Below are positions 6,001 to 12,000 of a DNA stretch of 64,000 nucleotides, piece by piece. Position numbers: made by a program. How positions within the stretch are numbered: position 1 is the stretch's first letter; the number at the start of each line of letters is the position of its first letter. Source of the DNA: an uncultured Verrucomicrobiota bacterium (GTDB lineage: Bacteria > Verrucomicrobiota > Kiritimatiellia > CAIQIC01 > Lenti-01); assembly GCA_938003985.1 (NCBI GenBank), contig CALKWZ010000031.1, positions 4,173 through 68,172 on the forward strand. Direction: 5' to 3'.

Positions 6001-9000
6001 CGCCCGCCGGTCTCGCGGAAGGAGAAGTCGCGGATGCCGTTTTCGCCGCCCGGGAACCGGTATTCAAGGGCTTCGGCTTCGAAGCGGATCGGCGCGAAGG
6101 CCGCGGCGCCGCCGAACAGCCGTTCGATTTCGCACCGGTAGACCGCCTGGCCGCCCCCGTCGCGGAGGATCGCGCCGGGTTCGAGCGGATAGAACCGCCC
6201 CGCCGCCGTCGGATTGTCGTCGACGGACACCTCTCCCCGCAGCGCGCGCACGAAAAACCGCCCGGTCCATGGACTGTGGAGCACGGCGATTTCCGCGCGC
6301 CAGCCGGCGCGGCCGAAGCGGCGGCACAGGCCGTCGTCGGCCAAATCGGATCCGGCGGCCATGAAGCGCCGCCACGCCGTCCATTCGGATTCCGGCACGT
6401 GGAAGGTTTCCGCCGCGCGGGCCAGCAGGCGGTCGGCCCGTTCGCCGGCATCCGGCAACGCCTGGCGAATCTGCAGCGAATGCAACAGGAACGACTGCTT
6501 TTCGTCCGGCGACAGGACCGGCGCCAGCCGTTCGCAAACGCCGGCCAGCGCGGTTTCGGGCGCGGCAGAGTCGGCTTGGCCCGCGTAGAGGTCCAGCAGA
6601 TCGCCAAAAATGCCGAAGCTGGGATCCGTGCGGCGCAAGCCCAGCGTACCGACGAGATACTCCTCCGCGCGGCGGACGGCTTCGCCCTTCCGGTCTCCCG
6701 TCCGTGCGCAAAACACAGCGAAGAGGTGGACGATGCCGTTCAGCGCATGCTCATGCATGGAGCGGAATCCGGTCCGGCGTCAGCGGACGAACTTGTCGCG
6801 CGCCTTGACGATGGCGGGCCGCAGCGCATCCAGTTGCGCCGGCGCGATCTCGGGCTTGTCGCCCAGGATGACGAAGACGGAGGCCAGGAAATTCATCCGG
6901 TCGTGCGCTTCGACCCAGCCGGCGAATTCCGGGCTGCCGCCCATGCGGTCCAGCAGCCGGTTGTAGGCCTGGAACGAATCGCGCAAATAGGCGACGTAGG
7001 CCATGGAGGCCGGATCGTAGTTGGACAGATAGCACAATTCCGCGGTCAGATAGAGGCCTTCGAGCAGGAAGCCGTAGAGGTTGTCCGCCGCGAATTCCAC
7101 GCCGTCGCTGTTTTGCAGCCGATCCTGCCAAAGCTTGCTCTGCTGCTGCTCCTGGACCAGGTTCCGCAGCCGCTCGTCGCCGCCGGGTTCGTCGATTTGG
7201 TCGAGCGCCTCCCGGTAGCGGCGTTCCAGTTCGGGCTGGGGATAGCCCACCAGTTCGAGCAATTGGCAGACGGCCTGCCCGTAGCGGGCGGCATCCGCCT
7301 GCCGGCCGAAGGTGGAGGCATAGGTCAGATCCATCAGGTACGTGCCGGTCATGATCCGCCGCCGCACCACGCCCTGGTAGCGGTCGATATCGACGGGCGC
7401 AACGAGTTCCGGGACGTAGGCCGCGCCGATCTCGCGCAGGGCCGCCATCACTTCGCCCATCTGCGGGGTTTCCTTCTCGATGGCCGCCAGATCGCTTTGC
7501 AGCGCCTGGCGCAATTCGTCGGAAATCTCCGCCGCCGATGCGGCCGCGACCGCGCCCAGCACCACCCACCCCAGCACCCATCCGATCGCTTTCGTCTTCA
7601 TGCGGCACCTTTCCCGGGGGCCCCGGTCCGGGCCCCACCTTGGGCCAAATGCTGGACCTTTCGCGAAATCGCGTCAATGCTTTCGTGTTTTCTTCCACCG
7701 GCATCGGCCGCGGGGTATGATGGACGCCAGTTTGGGCCCCGCCCACCGCAAGACGCCGACCGAAACCTTTGAGCCAATCGATGGAAAATGGAATTTGGCA
7801 GCCGATTCCGGGAATGCCGGGCGCGTTCGCGTGTCCCTACGTCCGCCGGCCCGACGTGCTGTCCGCCAATTCCTATTGGATCGAATTCCATGGCGGCCGT
7901 GTGCTGATCGATCCCGGCGCGCTGCCCGCGCAAACGGACAATTTGCGCCGGATGCTCCGCGCCCGCGAAGGCAACCGCACCCTTCCGCTGCTGATCTGCG
8001 CCACGCATGGCCATCTCGACCACGTCCGGGAAACGCCGGCTTGGTTGGGCGACGCCGACCGCCCGGTTTGGTTCGCGGCGCAAGCGCGCGGCGCCCGGGC
8101 GCTGGCCGCAGGCGATCTCCGGCAAACGGCGGCGGACCTGTATGGCCTGGACATGCCGCACATGCCCACGCACGTGCCGCTCTTGACCGAGGAAGACGAA
8201 CGCTCGGGCGCCCCCCGTCGGATGCGGCTGGGCGCGAACGTCGAAGCGCTCGTCCGCACGGAGCGGCGCGAAGGCGCGATCCGGCAAACGTTGGAATGGA
8301 GCGGCGGCGCGATCGAAGTCCTGCCTTGCCCCGGCCACAGCCCGGACCACGTGTGCTACCGCGTCGGCGATCTGTTGTTCGTCGGCGATCTGCTGAACGC
8401 TAACCGACCGCTGGTCGCCGGCGTCCATGGCTGGAATCTCCAAGAGCTCCGGCAGTCGCTGGCGGACGTCATCCGCGTGCTGGAAACGGGCACCATCCGC
8501 TGGTGCTGCCCCGGCCATGGCCATCCGCTGCCGGCGGAAAAGACCCTGGACCTGCTGCGGCGCCAGCGGGACCAGGCGGACCGCACGGGCGAAATCGAGG
8601 AATTGGACGTCGATCGGCTCTTCCGTACCGTGGAAGGCGCGCTGGAATTGATCGACGAAGCCGAAGAAACGTTCGCCGCCCTCGCCGGACGCCTGCTGTA
8701 CGTGGCCGACCGCCTGGACCTGCTGGACGAACCCAAGCTGGCCCAGCGCTGCCGGGAAACCCTGGACATGGACGCCACGGACGCCCTGCTCGACGCTTTT
8801 CGGGAACGGTGCCAGGCGTATTCCGCCGGCGACGTTCCGCGGGTGGCGTTCGCGATCGAAGCGGCGCGGATCGTCGAGAAGCTCCGGGCGGGCTTCGCGC
8901 CCGAACCCCTCCGCGCGTTTTTGCCGGCCGCCCTCGTCGGCCAGGCGCAACGGCTGCTGCTCGATTTCATGGGGCTGGCGCAAGGCGTCCGCAATCCCGA

Positions 9001-12000
9001 GGAATTCGTGCCGACCGACGTCGCCGCCCTGGTGGCCGAAATCGCGGCGGTCTGGCAAGCCAGCCCCCACCGCGACGGATCGATCGCCGACGCGGCGGAC
9101 GATCCGGACCGTTTCGCGGCGGAACTGGCCCGGCGCATCGGCCATCCGCCGCTGGCCCGCCGCGTCCCGGTGCGTTTCGACCCCGGCCCCGGCGGACCGC
9201 TGGTGCCGCTGGCCGCCGCCCGGTTCGGCGACGTCCTGCTCCCGTTCCTGGAATGGCTCGGACTGGCCGGCGCGCACGCGCTCGACGTGGAAGGCCACGC
9301 CGGCGATATGCCGCCGGCCCTGGCAATCCGCACGGCCGGCTGGACGCCGGACGACTCGGCGCGCACGCGCGCCAAGCTGCGCTCGTTCGCGCGCCGGTTC
9401 GCCCTCGCGGGCTTCGAATGGACCGTCGAATCCAATGGATTCCGGCTGGCGTGCACCGCCGCGGCCGCCCGGCCGCGCTGAATCGGCCCGCCGGCTTCTT
9501 GCCTCGCCGGGGCCGACATGCTACAACGCTCCCATCCAGAAAGGCGGGAACCATGGCACTGACGATCAAGGTATTGGAAAACAAACCGCGCGTGTTCGTG
9601 GTGACGCTGGCCGGGTCGCTGGACAGCACGACCTATCCCCAGCTGGAATCGAAGCTCGCCTATCTGCTGACCGAGGGCGCGGCCAAGGTCGTCACGCTGG
9701 ACGTGGCCGGACTGGATTTCATCAGCAGCATGGGCATCCGCGTCGTCTTCAAGGCCCAGAAGGACCTGGCCCGCGCCGGCGGCTATCTCTGCCTCGCGCG
9801 CATCCCCGCCCCCATCCAGAAGGCCTTCGAGATCGTCGAAGCCCTGCCCTCGATGCAGATCTTCTCCAGCATCGCGGAAATGGACGCCTATCTGGCCAAG
9901 ATGCAGGGCCTGTAGGCTTCCGGCCCCAGACGCATTCCACGCCGTGGAAAAATCCGTCGCCGGTCGGCCGCGCGGAAAACGCCGTCCTAGGCGAATCCCG
10001 GAATGCGCGTGGCCCGCTGGATTTTCCGGGCGGCCAGGGTCAGCAGCACCACCAGCGCCAGATAGCCGGCGGCCGCCAGCAGGTAGCCGCGGAAGAACAT
10101 GAAATTCTGCGAGGTGAAGTTCTGGACGAACGACAGGAATCCGTCGCACTGGATCAGGAAGGCGATGGAACTGTCCTTGAGGTTGTTGATGGCCTGGCTG
10201 GTCAGCCCGGGCACGGCGTAGCGGAAGGATTGCGGCAGGATGAGCAGGCGGAAGGCCTGCCGCCGGTCGAAGCCCAAGGCCTGGACGGCGGCCTGTTCGG
10301 CCGCGGAAATCGCCCGGTAGCCGTTCATCAGGTAGCGGGCGTTGTAGGCGGACACGTTGAGCGTGAACCCGATGAACGCGGCGGCGAACGGGGACAGATC
10401 GATCCCGACGGTCGGCAGGCCGTAGTACGCCAGGAACAGCAGCGCCAGCAGCGGAGTCCCCACGAAGAAGGTCACGTAGGCGTTGGCGACGACACGGACC
10501 CCGCGCGCCGGGTGGGTCAGGAAAAACAGCAGCAGCATCCCGCCCAGCAATCCCGAGGCCGTCATGGCGCCGGACAGCAGGATCGTCCATTTCAGGCCGG
10601 AAACCAGTCCCGGCCATTCCAGCCATAGTTCCTGGAAGAATTCGCCCATGGGTCAGCCGTCCTGGGCCATCTGGAAGAACCGGCGGATGCGCTCGTCCTT
10701 CGTCTGGGCGTACAGCGTCTCCGGCAACTGTTCGGCCAGGATGGCGCCGTGGTCCAGGAACAGGATCTTGTCGCACACGTATTTGGCGAAATGGGCGTCG
10801 TGGGTGACGCACAGCATCGTGACGTCTTCCAGGTAGAGCTTGTTGATGATGACGGACACGTCGCGGGACAATTCCGGATCCAGCGCGCTGGTGGGTTCGT
10901 CGAACAGGATCAGCTTCGGATCCATGGCCAGCGCGCGGGCGATCGCCACGCGCTGTTGCTGGCCGCCGGAGAGCTGCGCCGGATATTTGCGGCCATGGTC
11001 CTGCATGTCCACGCGCGCCAGTTCCCGCTCGGCCCGCTCCAAGGCCTGCTTGCGGGGCAGTTTCAGCAACTGGATGGGCGCCAAGGCGACGTTGTGCAGG
11101 GCGTCGAGGTGCTTGAACAGGCCGAACTGCTGGAACACGAAGCCGATCTGGCGGCGCACCGCGCACACGTCCGTGCCCGGCGCGGTGATGTCCTGGCCGT
11201 TGAGGAGGATTTTGCCGCCCGTGGGTTTTTGCAGCAGGTTCAGGCAGCGCAGCAGCGAGGACTTGCCGCTGCCCGAGGGTCCCATGACCACCTTGACCTC
11301 GCCGCGGTCCAGCGTGAAGCCGAGATCGCGCAGCACGGTCTTGCCGCCGAATTCGAGCGAGAGGTTTTGGACTTCCAGCAGCGCCATGGGTCAGATCTCC
11401 TCGAAGCCGGGAACGTGGAAACGGCGGTACAGCGCGCGGAACAGCGCGTTGCAGCCGAGATACAGCGCCAGGAACAGCAGCGCGGCGGCCGCGTAGACCG
11501 GCAGGCCGCGCGAGGTCACCGCGACGAGGGCCTGGGCTTCCTTCAGGATTTCCGGCACGCCCGCGACGTAGGCGAAAGGCGAGGCCTTGAGCACCGACGA
11601 GAATTCGTTGATCAGGCCCGGCACCGCCAGCCGCCAGGCCTGCGGCAGCAGCACGCTCCAGAACGCGCGGCGCGGCGACATCCCCAGCGCCAGCGCCGCC
11701 TCGCGCTGCGCCGCATCGATGGATGCGAGCGCGCCGCGCAGCACTTCGCCGACGTAGGCCGCGGCCACGAGCCCGAGACACCCCACCACGGTGAGAAACG
11801 GCGGCAGGAAAACGCCGATCCGCGGCAAGCCGAACATCGCCATGAAGATCAGCACCAGGGCCGGCACGCTCTGCACGACGTAGGTTCCGCCGCGCAGCGC
11901 CCGCTGCCCGCGCGGGCCCGCCAGTTGATGGGCCAGCACCAGCGCCGTGCCGCCGGCCAACCCCACCGCCATGGCGGACAGGGTGATCCCCAGCGTGTTC

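Follow-up and report, generated by a model that had tools for sequence, protein, structure and literature searches.

A metallo-hydrolase fused to a kinase-like module and linked to STAS genes suggests a branch of partner switching not described so far

Partner switching, which involves a STAS protein, a GHKL kinase and a PP2C phosphatase, is textbook bacterial control of sigma factors. In a stretch of 64,000 nucleotides from an uncultured bacterium of the Verrucomicrobiota (Kiritimatiellia; contig CALKWZ010000031.1), referred to here as the window, we describe a gene for a metallo-beta-lactamase (MBL)-fold hydrolase whose C-terminal half resembles a histidine kinase without its nucleotide-binding motifs. 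This gene, here called MBL-pseudokinase, is followed by a gene for a STAS protein (STAS2) with a phosphorylatable Ser. Because MBL-pseudokinase occurs beside STAS genes not only in the window bacterium but also in archaea that are methanogenic, it suggests that partner-switching signalling has a branch that has not been described. We tentatively propose, as a possibility that we favour while rating it somewhat short of probable, that partner switching has the hydrolase as an output other than a sigma factor, through docking of the STAS protein on the pseudokinase domain. The single parts (MBL hydrolase, histidine-kinase fold, STAS, RsbW and PP2C) are of known kinds. What appears to be undescribed is an MBL enzyme joined to a kinase-like module devoid of an ATP lid, its systematic pairing with a phosphorylatable STAS protein and the presence of this pairing in methanogenic archaea; literature searches on MBL proteins with STAS, or on archaeal partner switching, brought up nothing relevant, and no Pfam model exists for the C-terminal domain.

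The C-terminal half had been described in the original prediction as helical and without an assignable motif, with the guess that it might be a degenerate GHKL or kinase-like module. Pfam indeed gives no match over this half, and other sequence methods returned nothing significant. The fold itself agrees with the guess: the AlphaFold2 model of the full-length protein, built from a 58-sequence alignment, is confident (pLDDT 92, pTM 0.86), and a separate model of amino acids (aa) 272–570 concurs with it (pLDDT 87.7). The half is not purely helical, since a helical bundle in the place of the kinase DHp region precedes an alpha/beta domain with the GHKL/Bergerat fold of the histidine-kinase CA domain (Table 1). 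DHp-CA constructs of histidine kinases align with it over 145–182 residues, and the fifty best Foldseek matches are sensor histidine kinases only, which argues for a kinase transmitter-like module and against both a beta-CASP domain and a novel fold. A beta-CASP extension as in RNase J, named beforehand as the outcome that would speak against the guess, was looked for and rejected, as no beta-CASP Pfam match was found and the fold is kinase-like.

The motifs on which kinase activity depends were not found in this module. Across 81 bacterial and archaeal sequences of the family, aa 277–409 hold no conserved phospho-acceptor His (the commonest His occurs in 27%), Glu or Asp replaces the N-box Asn in 73, and neither DxGxG nor GxGxG glycine motifs are present; in the model, only 7 residues occupy the site expected for the F box and the ATP lid. 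Pfam detects no HATPase_c in the C-terminal half even at E 10, no HisKA, and no RsbW/SpoIIAB-type domain (PF13581). Other positions are near-invariant, namely E297, F302, G307, R308, D399, R456 and R485 (numbering of the 570-aa open reading frame, ORF). From the loss of these motifs and of the phospho-acceptor His we infer that the C-terminal half cannot bind ATP and that contacts with proteins are its only means of action. The GHKL fold and the adjacent phosphorylatable STAS protein might instead suggest an active, if unusual, Ser/His kinase that phosphorylates this neighbour; with the nucleotide-binding motifs and the ATP lid all missing across the 81 sequences, and with the gene for a genuine RsbW-like kinase close by at most of the loci linked to STAS, we regard such an activity as highly improbable. 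Unlike the DHp-CA transmitters of the sensor histidine kinases HK853, PrrB and ZraS, the window module lacks the H-box His, the N, G1, F and G2 boxes and the ATP lid, and its helical part looks like an intramolecular bundle. DivL and RetS are likewise proteins of the histidine-kinase fold that signal by protein–protein contacts rather than by phosphotransfer of their own. However, their sequences can still be recognised as HisKA/HATPase_c and their partners are two-component proteins, whereas the domain described here is fused to an enzyme and its presumed partner is a STAS protein.

For the N-terminal half, the Pfam model Lactamase_B (PF00753) matches aa 29–234 (E = 2e-14; 54.4 bits against a cut-off of 22.7), and each of the metal ligands H80, H82, D84 and H85 (HxHxDH motif), H190, D207 and H250 occurs in 90% or more of the 81 bacterial and archaeal relatives, which bears out the MBL assignment made earlier from HxHxDH and downstream His/Asp residues. 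As D48 is also conserved, the set of five motifs that bind the metals (D; HxHxDH; H; D; H) is complete and places the domain in the MBL superfamily. The best Foldseek matches are GloB of S. aureus (7l0b; TM-score per target 0.77–0.81) and TTHA1623 (2zwr); BLEG-1 is also among the closest structures, and the alkylsulfatase SdsA1 is among the matches. With the small MBL hydrolases of the glyoxalase II/YcbL type, to which GloB and TTHA1623 belong, the window protein shares the fold, the motifs THxHxDH and PGHSPx and the full binuclear ligand set; its site looks catalytically competent. It differs from them in the extra conserved N-terminal residues W10, Q11, R26, D29, S32 and N34 and in carrying the 300-aa C-terminal signalling module. 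An identity as GloB proper (TIGR03413 equivalog) was rejected, the score being 24 bits against a cut-off of 200.8.

STAS2 begins 71 nt after the stop codon of MBL-pseudokinase on the same strand, in line with the STAS gene reported there in the original prediction. It scores 62.1 bits with PF01740 (cut-off 22.6) and, with 50.6 bits, falls just below the cut-off of TIGR00377 (53.45). In alignment with SpoIIAA S58 and RsbV S56 the phosphorylatable Ser is kept, which settles a check that had been proposed for this protein. The conservation of the link was assessed in 46 related loci, in which six-frame ORFs were scanned with STAS, RsbW-like and PP2C seeds (seeded phmmer) and a sample of the matches was checked with Pfam. 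A STAS gene lies within 8 kb in 30 of these 46 loci and in none of 36 control loci around unrelated MBL genes (445 kb, same scan), the controls being from other taxa than the family loci and hence unmatched in background STAS density. In 17 loci, the window counted, the STAS gene is at most 300 bp away on the same strand, and in 19 archaeal loci it either abuts the MBL-pseudokinase gene or sits in a PP2C-STAS-RsbW-like operon beside it. Four layouts occur: STAS downstream (window, L001, L002, L007, L029, L032 and L040), STAS abutting upstream, a divergent operon, and a longer STAS protein, STAS-X, encoded in the same operon (L008–L011). Every adjacent STAS protein keeps the Ser equivalent to SpoIIAA S58 and RsbV S56 in alignment. 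The persistence of the linkage through four arrangements and two domains of life is a classical signature of functional coupling.

The resemblance of the MBL domain to GloB-type enzymes, the NCBI annotation as merely 'MBL fold metallo-hydrolase' and the metabolic neighbours of the Desulfobacterota members (an AMP-binding gene upstream, AcetylCoA_hydro downstream) would also fit an ordinary metabolic or detoxifying thioesterase-like hydrolase, in which the C-terminal domain serves oligomerisation or stability and the STAS neighbourhood reflects no direct interaction. We consider this quite unlikely in view of the STAS linkage in four independent arrangements and two domains of life, as opposed to 0 of 36 controls, and of a C-terminal module that is highly conserved and recurs behind sensor domains in the membrane.

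Binding of STAS proteins to GHKL domains is known from SpoIIAA–SpoIIAB and RsbS/R–RsbT, and the GHKL kinases SpoIIAB, RsbW and RsbT all bind STAS partners. In the window, genes for a PP2C phosphatase, a canonical STAS protein (STAS1) and an RsbW-like kinase lie 4.7–7 kb upstream of MBL-pseudokinase on the same strand. The earlier statement that no kinase or phosphatase is adjacent therefore holds for the immediate neighbours and fails for the neighbourhood. In the mechanism that we infer, contact and direction of the signal included, (i) the N-terminal half is a catalytically intact, glyoxalase-II-like binuclear metallo-hydrolase; (ii) the histidine-kinase-derived C-terminal half would be the place where the phosphorylatable STAS protein encoded next to it docks; (iii) docking would depend on the phosphorylation state of the STAS protein, and the RsbW-like kinase and PP2C phosphatase encoded nearby would govern binding by setting this state; and (iv) docking would switch the hydrolase on or off.

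The archaeal loci favour reading the hydrolase as an output rather than an input. In Methanoregula-type loci, a divergent RsbW-like gene lies 0.5–2 kb off in 10 of 10 cases, with a PP2C gene in 5; in Methanothrix-type loci, the operon is complete in the five with enough flank, the flank of L039 stopping before PP2C, and the PP2C of L031 carries three PAS domains. These modules comprise PAS-PP2C input, STAS protein and kinase, and no further gene except MBL-pseudokinase is conserved beside them. As archaea lack sigma factors, yet encode PAS-PP2C, STAS and RsbW-like proteins alongside it, MBL-pseudokinase is the only conserved candidate target in these modules.

Co-encoded STAS, GHKL Ser kinase and PP2C genes, a hallmark of partner switching, are found both at 626..3061 of the window and in the archaeal loci. 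As in the SpoIIAA/SpoIIAB/SpoIIE and RsbV/RsbW/RsbU modules of Bacillus, where STAS–GHKL binding is the core contact, they specify a single-domain STAS protein with a phospho-Ser site, a HATPase_c_2 kinase and a PP2C phosphatase. Unlike the Bacillus modules, the cluster encodes no sigma factor, and its extra conserved part is the MBL domain fused to a kinase-like domain lacking the ATP lid, a component absent from all modules described so far. A precedent for a non-sigma output of a STAS protein is SypA, which with SypE of Vibrio fischeri forms a system in which the STAS phosphorylation state is likewise read outside a sigma/anti-sigma pair (PMC8256260). In contrast to SypA, whose target is unknown, the window STAS protein has a specific and conserved candidate target encoded alongside it.

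Five Methanoregula-type loci (L024, L027, L028, L035 and L044) combine RsbW-like, STAS and MBL-pseudokinase genes with no PP2C gene in range, which covers 8 kb upstream and, downstream, the reach of the contig (8 kb, except for L024 with 2.3 kb). MBL-pseudokinase thus sits where a phosphatase would be expected. This would agree with a role as phospho-STAS phosphatase, in which the dead kinase domain holds the phosphorylated STAS protein while the binuclear metal site removes the phosphate, replacing or supplementing PP2C, and some MBL-fold enzymes do hydrolyse phospho- and sulfo-esters. We nevertheless hold this role to be improbable: the nearest structural matches are thioesterases of the glyoxalase-II-like kind, a PP2C gene occurs in the window as well as beside the gene in at least ten archaeal loci, and the Desulfobacterota members without STAS keep the same active site. 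To our knowledge, moreover, no MBL protein-Ser phosphatase has been described.

Several observations weigh against the proposed STAS-controlled hydrolase, in addition to the unmatched STAS background of the control loci. Comparison of the C-terminal profile with the RsbW-like protein of the window by hhalign gave no similarity (probability 0.04), indicating that the pseudokinase is not a close RsbW decoy. The STAS neighbour, whose co-occurrence with the fusion had been put forward as a check, is kept by orthologues across bacteria and archaea but not in the branch of the Desulfobacterota, Syntrophales and Syntrophorhabdaceae, where no STAS gene was found within 6–8 kb in 10 of 10 loci (L003–L006, L012–L014, L016, L042 and L043); the same holds for one Aerophobetes locus (L025) and a distant Opitutia locus (L052). 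Such loci imply that the family does not need a STAS protein encoded next to it in order to function. The domain order in certain relatives also favours an input-to-transmitter arrangement over a regulated enzyme. A profile of the C-terminal module matched only 249 of 1.84 billion representative proteins. The full-length ones are nearly all 530–590 aa long, with the module at about residues 275–560 directly after the MBL domain, and the shorter matches look like gene fragments. The exceptions are three proteins of about 1,150 aa (P0164, P0174 and P0192), in which the module follows a multi-pass membrane region that contains two 5TM-5TMR_LYT sensor domains and occupies the position of a LytS-type kinase transmitter, identifying it as a portable signalling unit. 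A STAS gene lies about 5 kb from two of the three and is absent near the third; a DUF6790 gene neighbours two of them.

These proteins lend some weight to an input role, according to which the MBL domain senses a small molecule, a metal or the redox state by binding or turnover and the kinase-like module captures or releases STAS2, which then competes for the RsbW-like kinase and feeds the signal into the PP2C/STAS1/RsbW module. The order of N-terminal input and C-terminal kinase-like transmitter is that of sensor kinases, and the window has, besides the STAS1 of the operon, a second, dedicated STAS gene by the MBL gene. We regard an input role as unlikely, however, because the adjacent modules already have sensor-bearing PP2C inputs (the three PAS domains in L031, the N-terminal membrane region in the window), because neither the archaeal nor the bacterial modules have any other conserved output, and because the strictly conserved, full catalytic site fits an enzyme better than a pure sensor.

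Genes for STAS proteins, GHKL kinases and PP2C phosphatases are common in methanogens, although these have no sigma factors. The MBL-pseudokinase family offers a concrete, testable candidate for the target of partner-switching modules in Archaea as well as Bacteria. If the STAS-controlled hydrolase is correct, a pseudo-histidine-kinase is able to sense whether a STAS protein is phosphorylated, partner switching extends to direct control of an enzyme, and a domain of about 300 aa that has no Pfam model gains a role in syntrophic and methanogenic anaerobes. A bolder and rather doubtful extension is that MBL-pseudokinase could be the missing effector of partner switching where sigma factors are lacking, as in methanogenic archaea, and in some anaerobic bacteria; in a sharper variant, the MBL site might itself be a phospho-STAS phosphatase of non-PP2C type.

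The first database search returned 116 homologues of MBL-pseudokinase, mostly full length and ranging from 98% down to 30% identity, and for this reason we take the ORF to be a real gene rather than a shadow ORF of high-GC DNA. The 570-aa ORF of the original prediction was recovered, although the protein is likely 566 aa long, as the homologues start at 'MENxxWQP' and make ATG 7781 the likelier start. Those homologues that bear a name are called no more than 'MBL fold metallo-hydrolase' or 'glyoxylase-like hydrolase'. Their hosts belong to Kiritimatiellia, Verrucomicrobiota/Opitutae, Syntrophales/Smithella, Syntrophorhabdaceae, Hydrogenedentes, Aerophobetes, Methanomicrobiales and Methanothrix, all of them groups typical of anoxic, methanogenic habitats. 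Consensus scans for promoters and terminators around the MBL-pseudokinase and STAS2 genes gave no match.

Within the whole window, only two STAS genes, one RsbW-like gene and one PP2C gene occur, all within 7.2 kb of MBL-pseudokinase. Between the PP2C-STAS-RsbW-like operon and the MBL gene, and divergent from the latter, lie a transporter gene and a gene for a 273-aa protein, which are kept at the same place in L001, L002 and L007. The operon has the same placement in the relatives L001 and L007, the MBL proteins of which show 85% and 61% identity, respectively: L001 has the same four genes, PP2C, STAS, RsbW-like and decarboxylase, in the same order, and in L007 STAS, RsbW-like and decarboxylase genes are visible, the flank ending inside STAS1 with PP2C beyond its range.

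Table 1. Features of the window and of related loci. Positions without a locus name refer to the window; a slash gives loci with the stated layout out of the loci listed.
Feature	Location	Strand	Details
PP2C (SpoIIE-type) Ser phosphatase	626..2236	+	N-terminal sensor region; Pfam PF07228, E = 2e-50
STAS1, anti-sigma-antagonist-like, canonical	2300..2635	+	111 aa; Pfam PF01740, E = 4e-19; Ser kept
RsbW/SpoIIAB-like GHKL Ser kinase (HATPase_c_2)	2654..3061	+	135 aa; Pfam PF13581, E = 1e-21
Acetolactate decarboxylase	3067..3768	+	Directly after RsbW-like gene
ABC-G-type transporter	3834..6758	-	974 aa; N-terminal extension of about 220 aa
273-aa protein	6780..7601	-	Signal-peptide-like N-terminus; no Pfam or NCBIfam match
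MBL-pseudokinase gene	7769..9481	+	570 aa from TTG 7769; 566 aa from probable start ATG 7781
MBL hydrolase domain, glyoxalase-II-like	7826..8587	+	About aa 20–273; metal ligands intact; Pfam, Foldseek
Helical bundle in place of kinase DHp region	8609..8983	+	aa 281–405; no conserved His; structure models
GHKL (histidine-kinase CA)-like alpha/beta domain, read as pseudokinase	9008..9454	+	aa 414–562; no N, G1 or G2 motifs, no ATP lid
STAS2, single-domain	9553..9915	+	120 aa; Ser motif DFISSMGIRV; Pfam PF01740, E = 5e-17
Antisense shadow ORF, not a gene	7598..9298	-	566 aa
Antisense shadow ORF, not a gene	8356..12783	-	1,475 aa
Kiritimatiellia-like loci	window, L001, L002, L007		STAS 72–87 bp downstream, 4/4
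Verrucomicrobiota loci	L008–L011		415-aa STAS-X in same operon, 4/4; ABC-transporter genes, MBL gene last
Methanoregula-type archaea	L022–L024, L026–L028, L030, L035, L044, L051		STAS ORF ends 2–26 bp before gene, 10/10
Other Methanomicrobiales	L029, L032, L040		STAS 88–234 bp downstream
Methanothrix-type archaea	L031, L033, L034, L036, L037, L039		Divergent PP2C-STAS-RsbW-like operon directly upstream
Methanoculleus-type archaea	L017, L019, L021, L045		STAS 3–5.5 kb away
Loci with flank too short to judge	L018, L020, L038, L041		No STAS detected
5TMR_LYT-module protein	L090, 6001..9477		
5TMR_LYT-module protein	L091, 6817..10281		
STAS-X gene	L028, 5755..7065		

The two long antisense ORFs in Table 1 overlie real genes; such shadow ORFs are typical of DNA with 67–70% GC. 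No target of the RsbW-like protein of the window is evident within the window. The STAS-X proteins (415–436 aa) consist of an N-terminal STAS domain and a C-terminal domain of about 320 aa with no Pfam match and no PDB relative by sequence. They are encoded beside family genes in the Methanoregula-type loci L028, L030, L035, L044 and L051 and in the Verrucomicrobiota loci L008–L011, where the gene lies inside an ABC_sub_bind/permease/ATPase operon with the MBL gene at its end.

Among the loci without STAS, L003, L004, L012 and L014 have an AMP-binding (acyl-CoA-ligase-like) gene directly upstream of the family gene, which in L003 and L004 also adjoins SnoaL_2 and acetyl-CoA hydrolase/transferase genes, AcetylCoA_hydro being downstream. 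These acyl-CoA-type neighbours in the Desulfobacterota/Syntrophales may hint at a thioester as the substrate of the MBL domain. An anion transporter gene of the DASS family (Na_sulph_symp/CitMHS) lies 0.2–2.4 kb upstream in eight archaeal loci (L017–L021, L029, L040 and L045), and a DUF6909 gene paired with a xanthine/uracil-permease gene is found near the family gene in L005 and L009.

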